57,111 bases of DNA, taken from positions 1 through 57,111 of IMG/VR virus record IMGVR_UViG_3300038552_000393. One strand, written 5' to 3'. Below the pieces are notes generated by a model, which was given only the letters and a program-made list of their open reading frames with translations, made no database searches and had not been told where the DNA came from. Positions within the stretch are counted from its first letter, which is position 1. Every line of letters starts with the position of its first letter. The translations under genes were made by a program, and so were the position numbers. Shown here one piece after another: positions 23,501 through 34,828 of this stretch. This stretch comes from a virus. Its lineage: Duplodnaviria; Caudoviricetes.

Positions 23501-26500
23501 CCACCAGGGCGTACTGCGGCATGCTGTCGCGCAGGGCACTCTCCGATCCGTCCGCCGGCCGGCTAAAAAGGCTCCCGCTCTCAATTCCGCGCACCACGGA
23601 ACGGGCCGAGACCGACCGCCGCACCAGATTGGCCAGGGCATCGATCAAATCGGCAATCCTCTGCAAAGTCTTGCCCACGATCCCGGACACCGCCGCGCGT
23701 TTTTTAAGCTGCTCGGCTACCCAGGCGGCCCGGTCTTCCGGCCCGCCGATGTCCTTTTTATTCAGGGCGCTCCACTTTCCGTTGGCGCTAAGCTGCTTGA
23801 TGCGCTGGCGCAACGCGGCCACCTCGCGCGGCGTGATCAATCCGGCGTCTTCCAGAAAATGCACGCTCTCATGGGTCAGTATCCAGCGGTCGGCAAGGTG
23901 CCGGGACAGTTCGATGGTGCCATCCTGGTATCTGCCGGCAACCAGCACGCCGTCATCTGCCATCGCCCCATATCCAAGATTGACGGCAACACGGTTCGGG
24001 TCGATCTTGTCAACCTTGCGGATCTCGATCCCCCGGCCATTGGCCAGCCTGACCCAAATCACATCCGGATCATTGACTGAAACGCCCACTGCCTGGCCGG
24101 GAAAGGCGGCTTGCACGTCGCTTAAAGTCACTTCGCCGGATCGAACCTCCCCCGGCCGGGAAATGGCAAATTGCGGTGACTCCTCGGGCTTGACCCGCGC
24201 CGGTGTCACCTCATCGCCGGGCTCACCTTGCCCGCCCTCATCCAGTTGCGTCAGTTCGCGGTTGATGGCCGCGATGCGCCGGCGGATCTGCTTCAATTCG
24301 TCCCCGTAGCGGAATTTCTCCTTGGCAATGGCGGAAAACTCGGCCAACTCTTTTTGTGCTTCGTCCATCCGTCCCTGGAGATACCGCGGCCGATCGGCCG
24401 CCGCCTCCAAGAACTCGTTAAACGGCCTGGACAGCGCCCCGGGTAGGGTGTTGGCGGATACCTGCCGGCTGTCCAGCCGCCGTCCCTTATGCGATACGAC
24501 AAAAAAAGCGTTTTGCAGCGGCCGCTCCTGCACCGTGCCATCGTCCTTTTCCACCGTGTAAAACGCGAGCGGCGTGGATGGCTTGGCACCGCGATCGTAG
24601 TTCGTGCGGGCGGAAAACGCCAGTTTGACGGCAAAATCTCCCATCGCAAAATCAATGGCTTCGACCAATTCCGGCCCGTGCATGCCGGAAGGGGCGCCCT
24701 TCTTAAAATCGCCCATGGGCTTGCCGACAAATTGCGCCCGCCAGCCGGCCACGATGGCTTCGATTTTCCCGGCAAGCCTGGCAAACGCCTCCTTGCGCGG
24801 CAATGTTTCGCCGTCGATGGTCAGCTCAACAACCTTGTGCCCGGCAAAATGCGTCTCGATATAATCCGCCACGCCGGTCGCCGTGTTTTTTTCGGCCGCG
24901 AGGCGCTCGATTTTCTCCGGCAGTTCAGCCGCCTGGCGCCGGGCCGCGGACACCCGGCGCACATGGCTCTGCTCGGCGATCTGGTACTTGTGCTGCTTGT
25001 GCAGCAAATCGGTCTTTTCGAACAGCAGTTTTCCGGCCTTGCCCGAAGCCGCCGCGGCAAACTCGCCGAAGGTCGCCTGCTCGACCGAAAACGGGTCATC
25101 GAAGTCCCGGCCAGAAATATCGCCCGTCAGCACCTGGTCGGCCCCTTTTTGCTTGCGCATCAGGCGCTGAAACATGACCGAATCCAGGGTATCCTTCGTA
25201 CAGTAATGATAGATCTCGACTTCCTCATTCTCGTTGCCCTGGCGGACGATACGGCCGTCGCGCTGCTCGATGTCCATCGGCCGGTCCGGCACGTTCATAT
25301 GATGGGCCGCCTTCAGCTTTTTAGCGATGTCCACGCCGATGCCCAGCTTGGCCGTGGTGCCGACGATCACGCGCGCTTCGCCTTTCCTGATTTGCTCCTT
25401 CATGCGCGCTTGCAGCTTTTCGTTGGTGCCGGTCTCGGAAAAGAGCAGCACCTCCTTTTCCGGTATGCCCAAGGCCACCAGCTTTTGCTTCAAATTTTGA
25501 TGCAAATTGAACTTGGGCCTTTTTGCGTCATCCTTGATCAGGTCCAAAAAAACGATCTGCGTACTGCGCGCGGATTTGGTTCTTTCCCAAATTTCGTGTA
25601 TTTTTTTGGCGGCTGCATTGGTTTTGCTGGTGGGTTCGTCCGGGTAGTAATCCGGGTCGATCAGCCGCAAATCCACCGCGGCCTTCTTGGCCTGGTTGTA
25701 AAGGGTCAAAGGAACATGCCGTTGCTTGCGCTTTTCACGCCCGGGTAGCTTCTCCCATGCCCGCCATTGTTCGATAATGCCCTTGACAAAGGCCGTCAGC
25801 TCGGGACTTTTTTCGTTGACCACGATGGTCGGTTTGCCCCCCGCAATCTTCGGCAGCGCAAGGTTGGCATCCCGTGTCAGGCGCACATCGGCCCCGGAAA
25901 AAAACATCGACAGCAGCTCCGGGCCATTGATGTATTTTGCAAATCGTTCGACCTCGCGAAAACCCGATGCGGTCTCCTCGGTGTCCTCCACGACATCGCC
26001 AAAATCCGTAGCAAAGCTGTCGAACTGCGCAACACCGTATTCCTTCAAAAGGTCGGGACGCACATAGCGCAACATGGTCCACAATTCGGCCAGGGTGTTT
26101 GATATCGGCGTGCCGGTGGCCGTGATCACGTTCTTGCCGCCGGTCTTCTGCCGCACGAATTCGGCCTTCAGAATCAACCCGGTGCTGCGCTGCGATGATC
26201 CGTTGTCGATCCCTTTGACCTTGTTCAACCGGGTGTAAAACTCGCTGCGCTTGTAAGAATGGACCTCGTCGATCAAAATGGCATCGATCCCCATCTCCTC
26301 GAAGGTCAAGACCTCATCCTTGCGCCGGTCCAACAGCGCTTCCAGTTTCTGCCGCTTGCGCTCCATGAGCTTCACCAGGTCCTTGACCGTAAACGAGTCA
26401 CCCCCCTCGCCGGCCTTGGCATCCTCGATGGCATCCTCGATGGCGGCCAACTGCTCATCCACGAAGGCCCGCTCCCGGCCGGGGTCGTTGGCGATGCCGT

Positions 26501-29500
26501 CGAAAAATGACTGGGGCAGCACGATGGCGTCCCAGTTACCCGTGGCCATGCTCACCAGGGTTTTCTTGCGCATCTTGGAAGAACGCTGGTCCATATCGGG
26601 AATCAGCACCCGGGCGGAAGGATAGAGCAGTTTGAAAGTGTTGCGGTACTGATCGATGGTCTGGTTATGGACCACGATCACCGGCTTGCGGGCCGTGCCG
26701 ATGCGCCGCATCTCCATGGCCGTGGTGATTAAAATTATGGTCTTGCCCGTGCCGACCCCATACGCCAAAAGCACCGATTCCTGCAACGCGCGCGAAACCG
26801 CGATCTTTTGAAGAGAGCGAAGCTTGATGCCTCGCGCGGCACCCGGGTAGTAATCGATGGCAGGCTCGCTATGCCGCCGCAGGATCGTGCCGTTTTTCTC
26901 CTCGTTGTAGACCCTGGCCAGTTCCTTGCCCCATTTCGGATGGGTCTTGGCCCAGCGCACGAACTCCTCGTTCAACTCCTTGCGTTTGAGTTCCGCCTCC
27001 TTGGATGCGTCCTTATCTTCGTAAGTGTGCTTGTTCGCATCGGTTTTCATCACCCTGGGATGATGCAGATTGAGCGACATTTCGACCAGCTCGTCGGCCC
27101 GGTAATTGCGGTCCCCGAAGGTCTCGCGGCTCTTGACCCCGTATTGGCCGCCTTTTACCTTCAAGCTCCAGCCGGCGCCGGTTTCGGTGTTGCGGCGGGA
27201 CACCTCGGCCGTAACTTCCAGGACATCTTGCATGAAGTCCTCGACCGCGCCGGGCAAGACCCAACTCGATCCGAGCCGGAAAGTAATGAACTCGATATCA
27301 AGGTCGGGGGGAATGACCTTTTCAAGCGCTTGGACATTGGCGGTAAAAGACGGGTCATCTTCGGCGGCAAGCCGCGCGCGGGCGAGCTTTTTCTTCACAT
27401 TGCCGGAAAGATACAGATCCCGCGGCTCAATGAGCCCGGTCGCGGGGTTGATGAACCCGAGGCCTTTTTCCACCAGGTCTTTTTTGATTTTTTCAAAATC
27501 CGTCTCGCCCAGCAGATCGGCGATGTAATAAGGCGAAAGCTCGCCGCGGTAGATGATCGACAGGCTGGCGGCGTCCTCGATGCCGCTGGCGGTATCCGGC
27601 TCGACAAACGGGTAAATGGTTCGCGTTTCGAACACCGGCGCCTTTTCGTACCGTATCGCCTCCCCGTCGCCGGGGGCTTCGACTTCCAGCGCATCCACGA
27701 CGGCAAAATCGTTATCCAGCTTCCTTAAAAAGGAATTGGCCGTATTTCCGTTGAACCGGCCGTACTTCGCGACAAAGGCATCATAGCGGTCGTTAAGATC
27801 GCGCTGCAGCCCGGCGATTTCGTCATCCGTGGCCGATTCGGCATTCATGGCGGCAAAGAGCCGCACCGTCAGGTCCCGAATATCCAGATAGGCCTTGACC
27901 CGCTGCATCTGGGCCGGGCTGACCTTTTGCATCTCGCCCTTGCTGTTGGCATACTGCGGGTGGATCAGCCGTCCGTTTTCGATCAGGCGCACCTGCCCGT
28001 CCTTGATCGTCAGGGTGCCCTCCTTGGCCGAAAGTTCGGCGATTTCGACCTTCTCGATTCCGGCCAGGCTCGTGCCCTCGCCGGCAATGTTTTCGGGCAA
28101 CGTCTCGATGGCCGCGGCCAACTGCTCGCTCAATTTTCCGGTCGGCTCCACCGTATAGGTATCACTGCCGTACATCGAACCGCTCATGGCGTGTTTGCCA
28201 AGGACCATCTCGGGGTGCCGGTGAAAATACTCGTTTACCGGGTGCAGCCTGCGGATTTCATCGACCGCCTTGTCAAGCTCCCCTTTCGCCTTGTCCCGTT
28301 CCTCATTGTAGCGCGCCTTGCTGTTTTTACCGGCGTCCTTGGCCGGCTTGCGCGCTTCGATTTCGTTAAGCGCCGCGCGCGCCGCTTCCATCCGCTGATA
28401 GGCTTCTTCGGCGGCCGGCCCTTCCAAGTGCAATGTGGTGCGAAAGTCTTCACCGCCCGAGGTCGCGGTCGAATCTTTTTTGCGCAAAATCAGGATATCG
28501 GTCACTACTTCGGTGCCCGCGTTGGACGCAAAGGCCGTGTTGGGCAGCCGCAACGCACCGATCAGGTCCGCCTGGCCGGCCAGATAGCCCCGCGCGGGTC
28601 CGGCGGCCTTGGCGTCCAATGACCAGTTGGACGTGATGGCGATCATCATCCCGCCCGGCTTGACGGCCGAAAGCGACCGGGCCAAAAAATAATTGTGCAG
28701 TTTCCACCCGTCGTATTCCGGGTGGCGCTTGTCGGACACCTTGATGTCGCCAAAAGGCACGTTGGTGATGGCAAGATCGATGGAGTTATCCAAAATGCCC
28801 TTTGATTTTTCAAAGGGACTGATCTGGATATTGGCTTGGGGATAGAGCTTTTTTAGGATGCCGCCGGAAATGCTGTCCATCTCGACCCCGAACAGGCTGC
28901 TTTTAGCGGATAGATCGTCCGGCATCAACCCGAAAAAATGCCCCGCCCCGGCCGCCGGCTCCAGCACCGTGCCGCCGGCAAACCCCAGGCGCCGCGCCAT
29001 GGCCCACATGGCATCGATCACCTCGCGCGACGTGTAGTGGGCGTTGATCGTCGAACGCTCGGCCGAATCCCACTCTTCCGGGGTCAGCAGACCGCCCGGG
29101 GCCGGGTGCAACTTCTGTCCGTATTTTTCCTTCCAGGCAAGGTAGGCCTTGCCCCGATCCGCATAAAAATAGTTATCCGGGGAGATATGCGCGTCGCGCT
29201 TGAGGTACCTGGTGAAATCGCGGTTGAAGACTTTTTGGGCAAACGCCCCCCAACCCGTGTAGCGGGCCAGGACCTTCTTTTCATCCGGGGCGGGGTTGCG
29301 GTCTTCCTGCTGGAGCAGCTTTAAAAGCTGGATGGCATCGATATTGGCCTTGATCTTGCCCTCGACGCCGGGGGGCACAATCACGTCATCCGGCGCGATG
29401 ACGTGATTGCGGTCTGGCGGGGCTAACTCTCGTTTGCTTCCGGCGGGTTCCGGGCCCACTCCCAGATCTGGAGCTGCAGGTCTTCGTCGATGGGATCGGC

Positions 29501-32500
29501 TTCCGGCACGTCGGTCGGGGACACCATGTTCTGCACGATCTCCTCGATTTCTATCTGGTTCAACTCCCCTTGTTCCTTGAGCCTGGCCCGGTGCCGGAAG
29601 GCCGGCGCCGTCGCTTCCTTGATCTCCGTAAACAGCGTCTTTCGGTCGGCCTGGAACTTTTCCGCCGTCTCCTGCGGGTAGCAGTTGAGCAGATGCAGCA
29701 CCCTGGCCCTGAATAGGCTGTTCATAAGAAACCTCCTGTTTTTTATCAATCGTAGTACTTGCCGGCGCCGGCGTCAAGTCTTTCTTAGGGGCTTTTTTGC
29801 CGGTCAAAGTGGTAACGGCGGAGGGTTTTTCAGCGGTTTCGGTCGCTTCAAGTTGCGCTGCGGCGATCTCGTCGGCCGGCGACATCTCCTTAGCCATCTC
29901 CTCGACACCTGGAAAATAGCGCGCCCCTTCGTAAAACGACCGCAAGAACGGCTTGACCTTCTCTCCCAAGTCGGCAATCATCGCTTTGGCAAAATCGCCG
30001 AACTTCCGCGCCCCGGCCTCGACATGGTAGACGGCAAGCTCCGTGCCCCAGGCCAAAAGCTCGGGGTCGATGCCGGCCGAAAGCTGGTTGAGCTTGGCCC
30101 GCAGCTTGGCCCGCAACTCCTCCGCCCGCTCGCTGGTAACCAGCTTGTTCTTGGATCCATACTCCGCCGGTCTTTTTTTAGCCGCCTTGCCCGCAAGCGT
30201 CCGGACCCCGGCACCTTTGTTTTTTTCCTCCAACGCCGTTTGCGCCCAGACGTTATTCGAATACGCCTTCAACACGGCCGCCGGCACGTCCTTGCCGTCT
30301 GCCACGGCCCGCTTGACGTGCAGGGCATGGGCCGCCTGCCTAACAGATAGCTCATCGCTATCCTTGGCCCCGGACAGGTATTCAAGCTTGGTCATCTGCC
30401 AGGGCTCTTTTGGCGCCGGAACCTCGGCAGGTGTTTCAACCCGGGTTGAACCTGCTGGGCGTTCCGGCGCGGCTGTGACGGACGCAGTCTGAGAACCGGC
30501 TTCTTTTGCCTCGAACCCGGCCAGTTCTTCTTTTGTCAGATATTCGTTGCGCCCTTTGCTGCGCAACACCCCTGGCGAATCGGCAGGTTTCTTTGCGCCC
30601 CAGGGGGTGATACCGCGCGGCGCTTCGATGGCGATACCGTTTTCGATATAATACCGATGTCCATCTTCTTTTTCATAAACCTGAAATCCATCGCGGTTGA
30701 CACCGATCCGGCGCTCGGCGGGAGCGGCCGGGAGCTTTTCTTTCTTGACCAGCGGCTGAACGATAAATTCTACTCCGCCGGCCTTAATGGTCTGCGCAGG
30801 CACCAGGTTGTTTTTGGCGACAGGCTCACCGGCCGGAGCTGTTGCCGCTTCGGCCAATCGTCGGGTGATTTTTTTCAGCAAAAGACTCGGCTGCCGGGGA
30901 TCGGGCTCGATCAAATCCGCGATCCTCGCCTGCTGTTCGCCGGTCAAGCCGGCAACATAATCCCTATACTCCTGCAGGGCCTTTTCGCGCTTGGATGAAG
31001 GAGCCGCGGGCATGGGCTGGCCAAGCTTTATTTCATGCAGCTTACCGTCCTTGGCGCTTAACTGCACGCTGTCAAATGTGACTTCTCGCCCCTCAAGCGT
31101 TGCGTCTCCGACATATTTCTTACCTTCCCCTTTCTTCACATACGCGATGGTCACAGGCGGCTGGTAATCCTTGAACGTCTCGCCGGGCAAATCCACCGTT
31201 TCCCCAACCTTGCGGTTGGCCTTGCGAAGGTCGGCGCTGTCGATATCCGCCTTGACCACATCATGATCATCGGCTTCAAAAATACTGACCTTTCCGATCC
31301 TGGCCTTGATCGGCCCCAGGCCGGCAAAGGCCGGGGCGATTTCCTTGGGGTCCACCGTCTCCATGCCGTAGCGCACCGTGATATGCGGCTGCCTTTCGCG
31401 GCCATAAGAATCGTCGTCTTTGCGAGTATAGATTTCCTTGTCCGGGATCTTGCTGCCAAACGATACGACTTCCCGCGCAACATCGGACGGCAGGCTGACC
31501 TGAGTCGAACTGTAATCATGCTTGACTGCGGCGGCTGGCTTCTTGCCTGTCAAGGTCGCTACCGCCGATTTCGACACGGCTGCAACCGGACTTTTTAGCG
31601 TCCCTGCGGCATCCGCCGCACCCTGCGCGGCCGGGTTGCTTCTGCGGCCAGTCAACGAAGCCACTCCTTGCCCGCGCACCGGTGCTATCCGCTGACCACC
31701 TTGCAATTGCGGCCCGGGGCTGGATGGTTGAGGAAGGGCTTCGGAGGCCTGCTGTTGCGGTGAAATTGCGCCCGAAGGCGTCGCTGTGGCAGACGCCGGA
31801 CCGGGTTGAGAAGCTTGTTGAGGTTCCGTTCTCACCGGGGCCAGTCGCGGGCCTCCTTGCAATTGAGGCTCGGGAATAGCTGTGGCAGAAGAGGATTCGG
31901 CGGGTTGCACCGGTGGCGGACCGTCATTCGAAAGCTGCGCGGTACCGGCCGCCGGACCGGAAGCCTCGGCGGATACCGGCATTGTGCGCATCGGCGCCAC
32001 ACGAGGACCGCCTTGTAACGGCGCGGCACCGGCGGTCTGAGTGGTTTTTTCCTGCTCTTCGGCATTCTGTTCCTGGATCACCGAGGCCAACATCGCTTCG
32101 GCTTTCTTGCGCGCGGCGTCCTTGCGCGCGGCGTCCCGGTTGCGCGTGTCCGCCGGGCTGGCCGCCAGGGCCGTGGCCGAACCGGTTTCGTCCAGCGATT
32201 GCCCGGAAGAAGGCGGTGGCGTTGCAATGCCCATATCGCGGGAGGCAGCCGCGGCCGGGTCGATACCCGCGTCCGCTTGCCCGGGCTTGACCACGGCGCC
32301 GGCGCCGGCGCCCAGCACCCCGCCGATGATCCCGGACTCGAGTAGCCGGCCGATGTTATCTGAAAACGTCTGGTCGGGTTTATGCCCTATTTTTTCGGCC
32401 AGGATGTTGACCGCCTCCTGGGCCGTCTCGGTCGATCCCTCCACCACCGCCTGGCGCACGATGCGCTTTAGCAGCCGATCGGTGCCGGCCTTTTTCAGCA

Positions 32501-33248
32501 CCAGGTTGTCAAATGGCAACACCTCCAGAATGCCGTTGACGATGCCCACCGTCACCCCCTCGGCGGCGGCGATGGACTCGATCTCCTCGTCGGAGTAGCG
32601 CTTTTCGGCCTTCATTTCGTCTTTGGCCTGGCTGTAGGCGCTGCCGGCCTCGATAGTCGCGGCCCCGCCCCAGGCACCCGCCCGACCGGCCCAGGCGATG
32701 ACCTTTTCTCCGGCCCCCAAGGCCTTGGCCCCCTTCATGGCCCCGACGCCGGGCAACATCATGGCCGCCATGTTGGGCAGGTTTTCTCCGATGGCCCGGA
32801 TCCACCAGCGCAAATCGGCGAGCCGCTCGGGATGCTCCCATACCGTGCCCTCGCGCAAATCCGCGGGCCGGGCCATGAATCCCTCCTGCCGGGACTTGGT
32901 CATCAACTGTCGGGCGCTGGATACGGCATCGGTCAGCTTCGAATCCGGGGCGATTTGGTTGAGCCCCATCTCGGCCACGCCCGCGATGGATTCTTCCACC
33001 GCCAGGGCCCCGGAGGTCAGGGCGCTGGCCGCTTCCTTGATCAAGCCGCGCTCTGGGGGCAGGGGAGCCGGAAAATGCTGCTCGACGAAGTTGTTCCGCG
33101 CACCCTCCTGGATATCTGGCGGTTGACGGTAGTATTCGGCGTCGGTCAGGTTCTGCTTGAAATATTCCTCGACGGCCTGTTTGCGAACGGTTTCGGGAAG
33201 GGCGGTAAATTCCGGGTCTTTGAGCCACTTGGCAATGACGGGATTCAC
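20598..33248 (-). CDS. Giant polyvalent DarB-like protein (~4,216 aa): 2H phosphoesterase, N6-adenine MTase, SNF2 helicase, HExxH peptidase
   Basis: NAHYTS, VLEPAAGAGHF and TNVPFG (MTase); YGVGTGKT, DEVH, ATGTPISN and QRDGRIVRQGN (SF2/SNF2); HITVRYG (2H); THESVHFLE; GGAGG RBS before GTG at 33248. Confidence 0.9.
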   Translation of the reverse strand: MNPVIAKWLKDPEFTALPETVRKQAVEEYFKQNLTDAEYYRQPPDIQEGARNNFVEQHFPAPLPPERGLIKEAASALTSGALAVEESIAGVAEMGLNQIAPDSKLTDAVSSARQLMTKSRQEGFMARPADLREGTVWEHPERLADLRWWIRAIGENLPNMAAMMLPGVGAMKGAKALGAGEKVIAWAGRAGAWGGAATIEAGSAYSQAKDEMKAEKRYSDEEIESIAAAEGVTVGIVNGILEVLPFDNLVLKKAGTDRLLKRIVRQAVVEGSTETAQEAVNILAEKIGHKPDQTFSDNIGRLLESGIIGGVLGAGAGAVVKPGQADAGIDPAAAASRDMGIATPPPSSGQSLDETGSATALAASPADTRNRDAARKDAARKKAEAMLASVIQEQNAEEQEKTTQTAGAAPLQGGPRVAPMRTMPVSAEASGPAAGTAQLSNDGPPPVQPAESSSATAIPEPQLQGGPRLAPVRTEPQQASQPGPASATATPSGAISPQQQASEALPQPSSPGPQLQGGQRIAPVRGQGVASLTGRRSNPAAQGAADAAGTLKSPVAAVSKSAVATLTGKKPAAAVKHDYSSTQVSLPSDVAREVVSFGSKIPDKEIYTRKDDDSYGRERQPHITVRYGMETVDPKEIAPAFAGLGPIKARIGKVSIFEADDHDVVKADIDSADLRKANRKVGETVDLPGETFKDYQPPVTIAYVKKGEGKKYVGDATLEGREVTFDSVQLSAKDGKLHEIKLGQPMPAAPSSKREKALQEYRDYVAGLTGEQQARIADLIEPDPRQPSLLLKKITRRLAEAATAPAGEPVAKNNLVPAQTIKAGGVEFIVQPLVKKEKLPAAPAERRIGVNRDGFQVYEKEDGHRYYIENGIAIEAPRGITPWGAKKPADSPGVLRSKGRNEYLTKEELAGFEAKEAGSQTASVTAAPERPAGSTRVETPAEVPAPKEPWQMTKLEYLSGAKDSDELSVRQAAHALHVKRAVADGKDVPAAVLKAYSNNVWAQTALEEKNKGAGVRTLAGKAAKKRPAEYGSKNKLVTSERAEELRAKLRAKLNQLSAGIDPELLAWGTELAVYHVEAGARKFGDFAKAMIADLGEKVKPFLRSFYEGARYFPGVEEMAKEMSPADEIAAAQLEATETAEKPSAVTTLTGKKAPKKDLTPAPASTTIDKKQEVSYEQPIQGQGAASAQLLPAGDGGKVPGRPKDAVYGDQGSDGAGLPAPGQAQGTRGVEPDRNRGDRAEHGVPDRRAGSRSHRRRPAAPDLGVGPEPAGSKRELAPPDRNHVIAPDDVIVPPGVEGKIKANIDAIQLLKLLQQEDRNPAPDEKKVLARYTGWGAFAQKVFNRDFTRYLKRDAHISPDNYFYADRGKAYLAWKEKYGQKLHPAPGGLLTPEEWDSAERSTINAHYTSREVIDAMWAMARRLGFAGGTVLEPAAGAGHFFGLMPDDLSAKSSLFGVEMDSISGGILKKLYPQANIQISPFEKSKGILDNSIDLAITNVPFGDIKVSDKRHPEYDGWKLHNYFLARSLSAVKPGGMMIAITSNWSLDAKAAGPARGYLAGQADLIGALRLPNTAFASNAGTEVVTDILILRKKDSTATSGGEDFRTTLHLEGPAAEEAYQRMEAARAALNEIEARKPAKDAGKNSKARYNEERDKAKGELDKAVDEIRRLHPVNEYFHRHPEMVLGKHAMSGSMYGSDTYTVEPTGKLSEQLAAAIETLPENIAGEGTSLAGIEKVEIAELSAKEGTLTIKDGQVRLIENGRLIHPQYANSKGEMQKVSPAQMQRVKAYLDIRDLTVRLFAAMNAESATDDEIAGLQRDLNDRYDAFVAKYGRFNGNTANSFLRKLDNDFAVVDALEVEAPGDGEAIRYEKAPVFETRTIYPFVEPDTASGIEDAASLSIIYRGELSPYYIADLLGETDFEKIKKDLVEKGLGFINPATGLIEPRDLYLSGNVKKKLARARLAAEDDPSFTANVQALEKVIPPDLDIEFITFRLGSSWVLPGAVEDFMQDVLEVTAEVSRRNTETGAGWSLKVKGGQYGVKSRETFGDRNYRADELVEMSLNLHHPRVMKTDANKHTYEDKDASKEAELKRKELNEEFVRWAKTHPKWGKELARVYNEEKNGTILRRHSEPAIDYYPGAARGIKLRSLQKIAVSRALQESVLLAYGVGTGKTIILITTAMEMRRIGTARKPVIVVHNQTIDQYRNTFKLLYPSARVLIPDMDQRSSKMRKKTLVSMATGNWDAIVLPQSFFDGIANDPGRERAFVDEQLAAIEDAIEDAKAGEGGDSFTVKDLVKLMERKRQKLEALLDRRKDEVLTFEEMGIDAILIDEVHSYKRSEFYTRLNKVKGIDNGSSQRSTGLILKAEFVRQKTGGKNVITATGTPISNTLAELWTMLRYVRPDLLKEYGVAQFDSFATDFGDVVEDTEETASGFREVERFAKYINGPELLSMFFSGADVRLTRDANLALPKIAGGKPTIVVNEKSPELTAFVKGIIEQWRAWEKLPGREKRKQRHVPLTLYNQAKKAAVDLRLIDPDYYPDEPTSKTNAAAKKIHEIWERTKSARSTQIVFLDLIKDDAKRPKFNLHQNLKQKLVALGIPEKEVLLFSETGTNEKLQARMKEQIRKGEARVIVGTTAKLGIGVDIAKKLKAAHHMNVPDRPMDIEQRDGRIVRQGNENEEVEIYHYCTKDTLDSVMFQRLMRKQKGADQVLTGDISGRDFDDPFSVEQATFGEFAAAASGKAGKLLFEKTDLLHKQHKYQIAEQSHVRRVSAARRQAAELPEKIERLAAEKNTATGVADYIETHFAGHKVVELTIDGETLPRKEAFARLAGKIEAIVAGWRAQFVGKPMGDFKKGAPSGMHGPELVEAIDFAMGDFAVKLAFSARTNYDRGAKPSTPLAFYTVEKDDGTVQERPLQNAFFVVSHKGRRLDSRQVSANTLPGALSRPFNEFLEAAADRPRYLQGRMDEAQKELAEFSAIAKEKFRYGDELKQIRRRIAAINRELTQLDEGGQGEPGDEVTPARVKPEESPQFAISRPGEVRSGEVTLSDVQAAFPGQAVGVSVNDPDVIWVRLANGRGIEIRKVDKIDPNRVAVNLGYGAMADDGVLVAGRYQDGTIELSRHLADRWILTHESVHFLEDAGLITPREVAALRQRIKQLSANGKWSALNKKDIGGPEDRAAWVAEQLKKRAAVSGIVGKTLQRIADLIDALANLVRRSVSARSVVRGIESGSLFSRPADGSESALRDSMPQYALVAAQPSGPAVTAELEKDRSFANKLFEMADQARQNVSVMTAKLQEQVQTLAGPASRKRIHLGIGYRPKIKESMQSRLLDQALFFYRDAGGDMSKIDGFKKTAALQLEDKEISGARRVYLQGVVKALDLASQLTDEQKAFADRMGEHFEAAYDLARDHKVVQSHVDNYVRRIYRKRPGEDGVNVMSGWSGPGHGFKTAHGAARPRTYETALDAIADGYELAVSGITNSYHEYMKELVTVLANRAFIQRGAGTKDASGRSLFTTNTSRVPGYENYRELKAEGFAVWQLAGAAEAVDMTGLGGVLETNSWGKKVFLAPPEQVPETWAVFADATATRAARVFTDERQAKTFADEQGYARIEHRPATEVSKLFQKQKLYAPASLAEMINKMTASDPLFANTPVLKLLSRFNSSIKGWVLMSSFFHHLAGARSWVFGVHHGWGRGKYVALSGDGDRVIGEFAGKDEARQAAGVDGIVLAPAKAAPFRAYKAGLDKVFDLHPLISLGVRQGLTLGEMQDWSDEILARDPGIAERIAAHFGWDKATDMIARGKFMRERWTNSLFKRYFAGLKAEAFCVEYVHELAKAQDLHHAGAAAPDPDLIAERVARLINEDFGGLHLKRMGRNPTLQILSRLMLLAPDWTESNFRMVTGMIPGLNEKISKAIGDVAPTPGMAPMYRKFMGRVILRIAVSTIIAQLLLNGKDDTEKHIDEQLRAGNWSKFRWTEIDISKLYRMLGIELDGERKTFSLGGHFFDPLKLLDPVKLIKGKASPFMRAMGAGFSGSDWADRPFTGAGELLTTGKTVKKSSHEPIESGFNRLPSVVVNQAINMQPIQVGQMLRFLQGEEDGLSALLHSAGIHVATAWQPKLATPIEAPAVAGKGFAEIERLQKGGILRMGPPSPNMTIGGVPHKMDKAQYREYLSRSSADAAARIETLAASGIYAKWDDATRARKIARIIENARARARKKVSRQLRATQR
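29423..29725 (-). CDS. Nested out-of-frame 100-aa ORF inside the giant gene
   Basis: AGGAGG RBS 6-7 nt before ATG at 29725; globular helical-looking sequence where the host frame is low-complexity. Confidence 0.6.
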   Translation of the reverse strand: MNSLFRARVLHLLNCYPQETAEKFQADRKTLFTEIKEATAPAFRHRARLKEQGELNQIEIEEIVQNMVSPTDVPEADPIDEDLQLQIWEWARNPPEANES

Positions 33249-33304
33249 GGGCAAACCTCCACTTGAACGTGTTTGGTTTTTTTTGTGGGAAAAAAAGCTG
33301 GCAG

Positions 33305-34828
33305 CTAATAGCCGCGCGGCGCGGGTGCCTGCCGCGATGTCACGGCCCCGCGGGCGGGCTGTGGCGTGCCCCCGGACAGCAGCCAATCGACAACGCCGGT
33401 ATCGCGCCACTTGCGAACCTCATCCGCTGTGGCCTGGCGCTGGCTGCCGTCGGGCATGACGATTATATACTGATTGCCTTTTTGCACCATCTGCGGGCCG
33501 GGCGGTTCTGCCGGGGCTTGGGCCGGGGCCGCCGTACCCGCTTTGGCAGTGGGCACGATACCGCCCTGGGATTCATTGCGGGCGATACCCACCTCGTTCT
33601 GCGGACTTGCGGCTGTCGGCGTATGGGCGGCCATCATCTGATCGCTGCCGGCGCCGAGATCGGGAACATAGCTGCGCCAGTCACCGGCCGATTTTGTGCC
33701 GGACGGCTGCGATTTCACACCTTGCGGCAGCGGTGCGCTTGGCCGCAGGCGACGGTAATAGGCCGTGGCATAATCTTCCTTCCACTGGCTTTCATCGACT
33801 GCGGAGGGGTCGATGGCGTCTTGCTTCAGATTTGATTCCCACGCTTTTTCTGCCGCCTCGATAGCCCCTTCCCAGGACTTGCGCTCGTCTCCGGACAGGG
33901 CCTGGACAGACTTCCAGTAGGCCACCGATCTGAATTCCAGGCCGCTTTGAACCTCTTTCTTTGTCTCCGGGTCGAAACCCTTGAGGGTTTTTCCCGTCTT
34001 GGGATCGATCCATGTCTGCCGAACGCTGTAATCTCCGCTGGCGTCTGGATCGGCGAATACCACGTAGAGCGCCTCCTTGCCGTCCGCCGTCCTCTGTCTC
34101 ATGGCCGGGTCGGTGGCTGCCGCGATCATCTGCTGGGTATTGAACTCCTTGATCTTCTGGCGTGTATCGATAAAGATCTTCCGCTGCTCCTTGGAAAACG
34201 GCACCGCAATCTGAAACAGCGCCTTTTCAAGCGGCGGCGCGGCCATCTCCTGTTCTTTCCCGTTGGCGTCGGTAAATACCAAAGAAGAGCGCGATTCGTC
34301 CTTAAAACGCATGTTCTTGCCGCCATCCGGCACGTGTTCGTAGACCGGCAAAAGCGCGTCATAGGCGCGCCGTTCCAAGTCCTGGCGGTCTTCCGGCGTC
34401 GTAGCCCGCTTGGACTTATAGTAATATACCTGGGCTTGTGAAATATGCTCGTTGACCTTCTTCTCGGCCTCCTCGGCAAGCTTCTGGTCGTTTGCCAACT
34501 TCTGCGACCGGTAGCCCTCGTCATCCTGGGCTTTTCGAAGAATAATGCCCTGGGCCGCCAGGTGGGACGCACCGTCGTAATCCGCTTCACCGGTATCTAT
34601 TTTTTCTCCGCGCAGACTGCGGTTGACGTAACCTTCGATCTTCTGGCGCTGCTGCACATCGCGGCGCCGCTCATCGATGATCTGACGGCGATCCTCCATC
34701 TGCAGCGCACGATCTTCCATGCGCTGGTCCCGCTCTTTCATATCCTGCTGCTGGTCGCGGATCCCGCGAAACGCTTGGGCGATGCCAAGCCCGTCTTCCA
34801 GCGAAAAACGCCCGGCTCGATCAGGCAT
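33305..34828 (-). CDS. Putative internal virion (ejection) protein
   Basis: Coiled-coil-rich 507-aa ORF in the ejection-gene position before the giant protein. Confidence 0.7.
   Translation of the reverse strand: MPDRAGRFSLEDGLGIAQAFRGIRDQQQDMKERDQRMEDRALQMEDRRQIIDERRRDVQQRQKIEGYVNRSLRGEKIDTGEADYDGASHLAAQGIILRKAQDDEGYRSQKLANDQKLAEEAEKKVNEHISQAQVYYYKSKRATTPEDRQDLERRAYDALLPVYEHVPDGGKNMRFKDESRSSLVFTDANGKEQEMAAPPLEKALFQIAVPFSKEQRKIFIDTRQKIKEFNTQQMIAAATDPAMRQRTADGKEALYVVFADPDASGDYSVRQTWIDPKTGKTLKGFDPETKKEVQSGLEFRSVAYWKSVQALSGDERKSWEGAIEAAEKAWESNLKQDAIDPSAVDESQWKEDYATAYYRRLRPSAPLPQGVKSQPSGTKSAGDWRSYVPDLGAGSDQMMAAHTPTAASPQNEVGIARNESQGGIVPTAKAGTAAPAQAPAEPPGPQMVQKGNQYIIVMPDGSQRQATADEVRKWRDTGVVDWLLSGGTPQPARGAVTSRQAPAPRGY

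Follow-up and report, generated by a model that had tools for sequence, protein, structure and literature searches.

The 57,111-nucleotide stretch of viral DNA analyzed here (Duplodnaviria; Caudoviricetes; positions 1 to 57,111 of the IMG/VR record IMGVR_UViG_3300038552_000393), referred to below as the window, carries on its minus strand a structural module that comprises genes for the large terminase, an adaptor/portal-like protein, the major head protein, and an internal virion protein, with a giant open reading frame (ORF) in the last position. Wholly within this giant ORF, on the same strand and in the +1 frame, lies a second ORF of 100 codons, the product of which starts with MNSLFRARVL. 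The bases of this nested ORF also serve as the codons for residues 1229-1329 of the giant protein, a linker on the N-terminal side of a methyltransferase-helicase module. The features on which the following analysis is centered are:

29423-29725, minus strand: nested ORF, 100 codons followed by the stop codon TAG (29425-29423), with the ATG at 29725-29723, as read from the sequence
29732-29737, minus strand: Shine-Dalgarno (SD)-like AGGAGG, separated from the nested ATG by the 6-nt spacer TTTCTT (29731-29726)
33410-20598, minus strand: giant ORF encoding a DarB-like polyvalent virion-type protein, 4270 codons as listed
29886-30149, minus strand: conserved helical domain of the giant, residues 1088-1175, on the 5' side of the linker, delineated by tblastn
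27531-29422, minus strand: N-terminal part of the methyltransferase module, giant residues 1330-1960, delineated by profile matches and by motifs read in the translation, which we take to be of the AdoMet and NVPF types
25083-26828, minus strand: SNF2/ResIII-type helicase module, giant residues 2195-2776, delineated by Pfam and phrog_62 matches

Judging from the sequence comparisons and structure modeling described below, the nested ORF (29725-29423, minus strand) is very probably a genuine gene that is translated separately from the giant. An earlier note on this DNA, made from the sequence alone, had pointed to the string AGGAGG-tttctt-ATG as the opening of a 100-residue same-strand ORF without giving the strand, which is the minus one; a scan for SD motifs (at least 4 nt, located 5-13 nt before the ATG) scores the same site as AGGAGGT with a 5-nt spacer. 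The note had also set a globular composition of the nested product against a G/P/R/A-rich giant frame, and the figures agree: over the overlap, the giant-frame peptide contains 55% G+P+R+A and 13% hydrophobic residues, as against 25% and 29% in the small protein and 33% and 28% in the whole giant. Its placement of the end of the ORF at the beginning of the methyltransferase-helicase module was accurate as well, with the nested ORF ending ~20 codons ahead of the conserved N-terminal helix of the methyltransferase module.

The length of the nested ORF by itself is not beyond chance because 22 same-strand, alternative-frame stretches of at least 90 codons from stop to stop occur inside the giant. 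The GC contents at the first, second, and third codon positions (GC1/2/3) of the nested frame are 0.61/0.37/0.79 from stop to stop and 0.61/0.36/0.84 over the ORF, close to those of the giant overall (0.63/0.45/0.74), and the giant frame within the overlap shows values of ~0.82/0.6/0.33. The genome's coding pattern is found in only 1 of the 22 long alternative-frame stretches, namely, the nested one; the remaining 21 display an off-frame pattern, with the GC-richest position being the second in 10 of them and the first in 11. A merely disordered linker would hold GC3 high rather than lower the giant-frame value to 0.33. In the window, a run of six A residues is located 10-15 nt 5' of the nested ATG, and the nested frame contains no stop in the 16 codons ahead of this ATG.

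The nested protein belongs to a family with a recognizable, albeit previously unnamed, membership. A phmmer search against 1.84 billion representative sequences yielded 24 matches at E ≤ 1e-3, of which 22 are proteins of 80-167 amino acids that align over nearly the full length with 28-50% identity (E from 4e-21 to 4e-4) and show a clear conservation pattern. The AlphaFold2 model built from a 23-row alignment is helical, with a mean predicted local distance difference test score (pLDDT) of 96.7 and a predicted template modeling score (pTM) of 0.87; 96 of the 100 residues have a pLDDT of at least 90. The protein has a conserved loop with a VAPTD-like motif and a C-terminal helix with a W residue. 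The window protein is acidic (isoelectric point 4.7), a property that is not shared by all its relatives, and its translation contains no lipobox or signal peptide. In many of the homologs of this type, the C-terminal motif corresponds to the conserved D-R-N-H of the giant read in the +1 frame, which suggests that the metagenomic relatives carry the same overlap.

Outside this set, searches with the nested protein were unproductive. No match above the cut-off was found in Pfam (the best being AAA_lid_2, with E 0.0047 and 17.1 bits vs a cut-off of 22.7, for 1 of 23 family members), none in PHROGs (best E 1.5), and none in NCBIfam; a word-indexed search among proteins of near length and scans of IMG/VR with the family members P0003, P0004, and P0005 retrieved no relatives, and nothing at E ≤ 1 emerged when the window protein was compared by tblastn with 50,697 phage records. 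Structure-based searches with the model returned nothing at E ≤ 0.001 from the PDB by Foldseek (41 matches at E ≤ 10, the best at 4.2) or from BFVD, where the entry at rank 11, Q8W6J4_2 (TMq 0.53), is presumably PBC5 orf33, going by its accession. The best hit of the wide VIA-align search (Z 5.7; 2apl_A, 63 residues aligned, root-mean-square deviation 2.3) is within the noise range for helical models, and ESM Atlas provided no usable match.

The same arrangement was found in other phages. A tblastn search with the junction region of the giant matched 140 phage records, and the junction was examined in 24 loci, consisting of the window, 19 named phages (Burkholderia phages DC1, BcepIL02, CSP3, and JC1; Ralstonia phages NK-7, Gamede, YL2, PY045S1, AhaGv, and UAM5; Erwinia phages PEp14 and Pavtok; and POI1126, PBC5, Atu_ph08, VvAW1, LASTA, Mwe-JY07, and Itty13), and four metagenome or IMG/VR contigs. 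A metagenome scan with the methyltransferase segment gave two loci, with the site covered in one of them (L017). The hosts named in the records are Burkholderia, Ralstonia, Erwinia, Klebsiella, Pseudomonas, Vibrio, Agrobacterium, Sinorhizobium, Ochrobactrum, and Microcystis. In all 24 loci, the segment directly 5' of the N-terminal helix of the methyltransferase harbors an ORF that starts with ATG, spans 69-132 codons, has a normal GC1/2/3 pattern, and is shifted by +1 relative to the methyltransferase frame, and in 22 of the 24, this ORF is preceded by an SD-like motif by the definition given above. In PEp14, Pavtok, LASTA, and VvAW1, a stop codon in the small frame is located 2-5 codons before the methionine, so that the product must start at its own Met. 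The ORF, ATG, and SD motif are retained in lineages whose giants are only 32-47% identical.

The helical domain upstream of the linker was detected in 16 of the 20 loci searched by tblastn, with 29-63% identity, and shares the frame of the methyltransferase part in every matching locus but PBC5. In two loci (L002 and L003), the domains on the 5' side of the linker differ and the nested ORF is still there, which indicates that it travels with the methyltransferase module. Among 72,556 plasmid records, only one matched, a 59-kb POI1126-like replicon of Brucella pseudintermedia; thus, at tblastn sensitivity, nothing in this collection points to conjugative plasmids as carriers of the nested gene.

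Substitutions were analyzed in three groups of related phages, namely, four Lessievirus, six Ralstonia phages, and two Erwinia phages. In this order, the numbers of variable sites in the overlap at small-frame positions 1/2/3 are 14/18/29, 6/4/9, and 10/11/16; at giant positions 2/3/1, those in the downstream flank are 16/67/21, 5/41/8, and 1/46/1, and those in the upstream flank are 46/82/57, 46/63/48, and 12/52/15. Thus, the variation in both flanks peaks at the third positions of the giant frame and that in the overlap peaks at the third positions of the small frame. Eight of the nine pairs for which the proportions of nonsynonymous and synonymous differences (pN/pS) were compared differ in the overlap, NK-7 and PY045S1 being identical there. 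Among these eight pairs, the small frame has pN/pS values of 0-0.42; over the same bases, those of the giant frame are 0.64-1.10, or undefined if synonymous changes are absent, and in the methyltransferase flank, the giant-frame values are 0.03-0.39. Between NK-7 and Gamede, all four changes in the overlap are synonymous in the small frame and nonsynonymous in the giant frame. Between the same two phages, divergence in the upstream flank of the giant reaches pS 0.30 and pN 0.22, and the 107-residue nested protein is identical in five of the six Ralstonia phages, which belong to different genera (loci L012, L016, L019, L020, and L021).

The giant frame over the overlap evolves almost freely apart from one feature, the avoidance of stop codons. 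When the small protein was held fixed and its codons were resampled from local usage in eight lineages, the chance that the giant frame stayed open was 0.023 for the window, 0.40 for DC1, 0.36 for NK-7, and 0.095, 0.0086, 0.0035, 0.0069, and 0.077 for the further lineages, with a product of ~5e-12 if independence is assumed. The frame is open in all eight of these lineages and in 24 of 24 loci overall. Likewise, none of the 251 at-risk codons, those that would complete a giant-frame stop with a preceding T, has T before it, compared to 31 of 562 other codons. Because the giant frame is open far beyond chance, both frames are apparently in use; as far as can be judged from the sequences, both are under selection, the small frame for its protein and the giant frame for staying open. 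In summary, constraint acts on the nested frame, stops are kept out of the giant frame, and conservation of the arrangement extends to many phage genera.

How, then, could the locus be explained otherwise? Long alternative-frame ORFs are common in the giant, as the 22 stretches of at least 90 codons attest, and the nested one could be a chance ORF left open opposite a G/P/R/A-rich disordered linker in a genome of 57% GC, with no protein made. We consider this extremely improbable given that such a linker would not push the giant-frame GC3 to 0.33, that the product has 22 full-length homologs and a model with a pLDDT of 96.7, that the ATG (24/24 loci) and the SD motif (22/24) recur at the same place, and that substitutions peak at the small-frame third positions. 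It is also very unlikely that the ORF is a decaying relic of a once independent gene caught between two fused genes, now unexpressed and tolerated by the linker. The near absence of constraint on the giant frame over the overlap would allow this DNA to drift harmlessly as far as the giant is concerned, but drift would ruin the small frame, whereas the ORF, ATG, and SD persist across giants that are 32-47% identical, small-frame pN/pS does not exceed 0.42, and all four changes between NK-7 and Gamede are synonymous in the small frame. A further possibility inverts the problem: the giant would actually be two proteins with an ordinary small gene between them, and the giant-frame reading of the overlap would be open by chance and never translated. 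Chance openness is plausible in the GC-richest genomes (0.40 in DC1, 0.36 in NK-7), and the old PBC5 annotations do split the gene. Nevertheless, we assign this explanation a very low probability because the upstream part has no in-frame stop, so that ribosomes must read on, the frame is open in 8 of 8 lineages (joint chance ~5e-12) with T preceding none of the 251 at-risk codons, and no convincing start for a separate methyltransferase gene is present after the stop of the small ORF.

Several observations weigh against the interpretation of the nested ORF as a separately translated, conserved gene. In PBC5 (L015/L025), the small protein shares the frame of the upstream domain, and its stop is also the end of the annotated coding sequence (CDS); the metagenomic homolog P0017 (164 residues) runs in frame into the first residues of the methyltransferase part before diverging. 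Given these frame connections, fused products or frameshifting retain a small probability. Two of the 24 loci (L001 and L003) have no clear SD motif. The Nei-Gojobori pN/pS ratios are biased in overlapping frames, although the contrast between the frames is consistent. Furthermore, the window ORF has no relatives at the nucleotide level, such that the substitution tests come from homologous phage groups and the constraint within the window's own subfamily is seen at the protein level, in the 22 homologs with 28-50% identity. Finally, the profiles of the nested families are unevenly connected: hhalign links the window type (A1) to the POI1126/PEp14/PBC5 type (A3) with a probability of 92.3% (E 5.5e-7, 71 columns), but A3 matches the Burkholderia/Ralstonia type (A4) only weakly (25%, E 7.7e-4, 28 N-terminal columns), and no similarity was found between A1 and A4 in this comparison. 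Because the sequence homology is weak or undetected, the Burkholderia and Ralstonia nested ORFs are linked to the rest by position.

The frame connections of PBC5 and P0017, together with the A6 run before the nested ATG in the window and the 16 open codons of the small frame upstream of it, are the points in favor of a scenario in which there is no separate gene, and the domain is made only as part of a larger fusion, with the N-terminal part or with the methyltransferase, by way of programmed frameshifting or of slippage during transcription (the A6 run being a candidate site), or the change of frame reflects an assembly error. We deem this scenario improbable. An assembly error is at odds with the same frame relation in 24 of 24 independently sequenced loci, and a fusion as the general mechanism is at odds with the conserved Met and SD and with the small-frame stop 2-5 codons ahead of the Met in PEp14, Pavtok, LASTA, and VvAW1. 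For the methyltransferase part of PBC5, which lies in the -1 frame, a second CDS is annotated with a start much further 3', and this 2001 record has more breaks in the same gene; we suspect that these breaks are sequencing errors, a natural split form being possible. As for P0017, its continuation and the giant-frame segment just past the nested ORF of the window are nearly identical; P0017 may have arisen naturally, by fusion or frameshift, or through faulty assembly.

If the nested ORF is indeed a separate gene, then, most likely, ribosomes would start independently at its own SD and ATG on the mRNA of the giant and thereby yield a free, 100-residue acidic helical protein, while ribosomes arriving from the start of the giant would read the same bases one frame back and produce the ~100-residue G/P/R/A-rich linker, which would join the N-terminal virion domains to the methyltransferase-helicase module. 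In cases of overprinting, ancestry is usually assigned to the frame that has genome-like codon usage and a folded product. By this criterion, the small gene seems to be the older of the two, with the giant having arisen by reading through it, because the small frame has the genome-like codon pattern and is under purifying selection, and the giant frame is nearly free. The linker of the giant would then largely be a shadow of the small gene's codons, which would explain the odd G/D/R/A-rich "linker" of these giants; for instance, in POI-type giants, the conserved N-E-P-E-Q-L is the -1 reading of M-N-L-N-N-W. The AT-rich stretch directly 5' of the SD (29740-29749, minus strand), with an A6 run and a third-frame TGA-TAA, looks like a former intergenic region in which a stop, an SD, and an ATG follow one another. 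A candidate upstream gene ending at this TGATAA was rejected, given that the third frame has another stop 19 codons further 5'.

The earlier note had interpreted the locus as overprinting, and the part of this claim that stands is the out-of-frame nested gene with dual coding; the direction is probably the reverse, given the genome-typical codons and the purifying selection in the small frame. The codon-level comparison of both frames that it had proposed gave a nested pN/pS of 0-0.42 vs 0.64 or more for a giant frame that nonetheless remains stop-free, and the stops or missing ribosome-binding sites in homologs that it had named as counterevidence largely did not materialize, with the ORF present in 24 of 24 loci and the SD in 22 of 24. 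Its expectation that the gene would escape standard annotation was borne out by 62 GenBank/RefSeq records with a homolog (21 phage records matched by tblastn with the POI1126-type protein and 41 with the DC1-type protein), none of which has a separate CDS for the nested gene. Most of these records list the giant CDS only; the two PBC5 records place the match within the upstream CDS, and Itty13 has an opposite-strand CDS. In the latter phage (L030, NC_070969, 67% GC), hypothetical proteins are annotated on the opposite strand over the linker and the start of the methyltransferase, and on the other strand, a long ORF in the methyltransferase frame and the nested ORF are both open; the opposite-strand annotation is probably mis-stranded.

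As far as these records and the literature searches go, the nested gene is apparently undescribed. Term searches of the JC1 paper (PMC9144972) and of the polyvalent-protein paper (PMC5512222) found no mention of it, and a full-text search for DarB or DarB-like proteins combined with overlapping genes retrieved nothing relevant. The text of the former paper suggests that published virion proteomes were matched by their authors against annotated proteins only (PMC9144972). Out-of-frame embedded genes are rarely recognized in tailed double-stranded DNA phages, and standard gene callers discard them. The nested gene is a further case of embedded phage genes. Its polarity is unusual because the passenger frame is that of the long gene, and the locus offers a clean natural case of dual coding maintained over a long time; in each of the 62 records, the genome gains a gene that had been missing. 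In a widespread phage group, the nested gene keeps exactly the same place within the largest gene, and the protein is of no known family.

The giant matches the profile phrog_10089, "DarB-like antirestriction," over residues 1204-3158 (E 0, 1471 bits) and is 32% identical to gp67 of Burkholderia phage DC1 over 1775 aligned columns; with this family profile match and a methyltransferase module followed by an SNF2-type helicase, it belongs with the DarB-like proteins of PHROG 10089. The helicase module matches SNF2-rel_dom (E 8.9e-8) and ResIII (E 1.6e-6) in Pfam, both above the cut-offs, as well as Helicase_C (E 0.026), and phrog_62, DNA helicase, in PHROGs (E 4.4e-33). By this family match, the giant is predicted to be a virion-packaged protein that protects incoming DNA from restriction.

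The sole functional hint for the nested protein is its constant position at the 5' edge of the methyltransferase-helicase module, even with differing upstream domains. Perhaps, then, it works with this module, for example, as a folding, packaging, or activity-control factor, a suggestion that we put forward tentatively; the remaining probability is shared by an accessory role of its own and a role in translation, for example, in coupling or in a re-initiation that would give a free methyltransferase-helicase. A complex prediction for the small protein and giant residues 1330-1960 scored 0.00 in both runs, which, being without controls, speaks neither for nor against binding. A more far-reaching version, rather doubtful on present grounds, holds that a small gene already in place was read through in its -1 frame when the giant was assembled and that the DarB-like methyltransferase-helicase module cannot do without the small protein as its cofactor or, alternatively, that termination at the stop of the small gene could re-start ribosomes to give a free methyltransferase-helicase. 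Should this version hold, the gene for a folded protein would double as the flexible linker of a ~4200-residue protein, the cofactor could serve as a chaperone for packaging or activation or, conversely, restrain the activity of the module, and the two frames would be functionally locked together across at least 10 phage genera. A partnership of the small protein with the module would point to an unexplored component of the DarB-type antirestriction machinery.

Comparison with known systems reveals partial parallels. Rz1 is a lipoprotein of roughly 60 residues, and the frame that hosts its gene encodes a functional, constrained part of Rz. As in the case of Rz1 inside Rz (in lambda-type and Bcep22-like phages), the nested gene is a short gene in a longer same-strand gene, in another frame and with its own start, and the two products come from one mRNA, as is proposed here for the nested gene and the giant. 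Unlike in Rz1/Rz, however, the host frame here encodes a linker that is almost unconstrained, and conservation resides in the nested frame, the product of which is predicted to be folded; moreover, the nested protein has no lipobox or signal peptide and is unrelated to lysis. The text of the JC1 paper refers to an "embedded class" of Rz1 in these phages (PMC9144972). A second, sequence-unrelated and eukaryotic model for a partner of the giant is the mammalian XLalphas/ALEX pair, in which one mRNA stretch is read in two frames and the products bind each other (PMC1186735); by analogy, such a relationship could apply to the nested protein.

Closer to the giant itself are phage P1 DarB and the Bcep22-like proteins. 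The giant of the window, like P1 DarB, has a DarB-type methyltransferase and helicase. P1 also has a small gene by darB, with the RefSeq description "Ulx-like anti-restriction," which is a separate gene of 146 codons downstream of darB, whereas the window gene is nested upstream of the methyltransferase module. Piya and colleagues are said to have found in 2017 that Ulx is needed for DarB-dependent protection. Neither A1 nor A3 shows similarity to P1 Ulx by hhalign (probability 0.2%, E 0.3), sequence comparison detected no domain of the nested type at the N-terminus of P1 DarB, and P1 has no gene immediately 5' of darB on the darB strand. By contrast, Bcep22 gp75, DC1 gp67, and JC1 gp69 (PHROG 10089) have the same order of helical domain, linker, methyltransferase, and helicase as the window giant and carry a nested ORF at the same linker, the product of which belongs to a subfamily other than the window's A1.

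Several further features of the giant deserve mention. The first 54 codons as listed (33246-33410, minus strand) lack the coding GC pattern and overlap the upstream gene, which ends at 33305; the true start is probably the in-frame GTG at 33248, preceded by GGAGG with a 7-nt spacer, in which case the giant would have ~4216 residues. Residues 663-785 (31056-31424, minus strand) form a 2H-phosphoesterase domain, with a match to Pfam 2_5_RNA_ligase2 (E 2.2e-6, 28.2 bits vs a cut-off of 27), a weak match to the anti-CBASS protein Acb1 (E 0.084), and a match to phrog_755, "RNA ligase"; judging from these similarities, it could be a counter-defense domain that degrades cyclic nucleotides. Within residues 465-581 (31668-32018, minus strand), the motif L-Q-G-G-x-R-x-A-P-x-R occurs three times with a spacing of 52 residues in a P/A/Q/S-rich stretch, over which the giant-frame GC3 falls to 0.45-0.62; the alternative frames show no coding pattern there. 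Finally, a T/S-L-T/A-G-K/R-K/R-like motif is found four times at apparent domain borders of the giant, at residues 585, 619, 1071, and 1201, with the fourth copy (~29793-29810, minus strand) located ~25 residues ahead of the nested ATG; these repeats could be a processing or linker motif.

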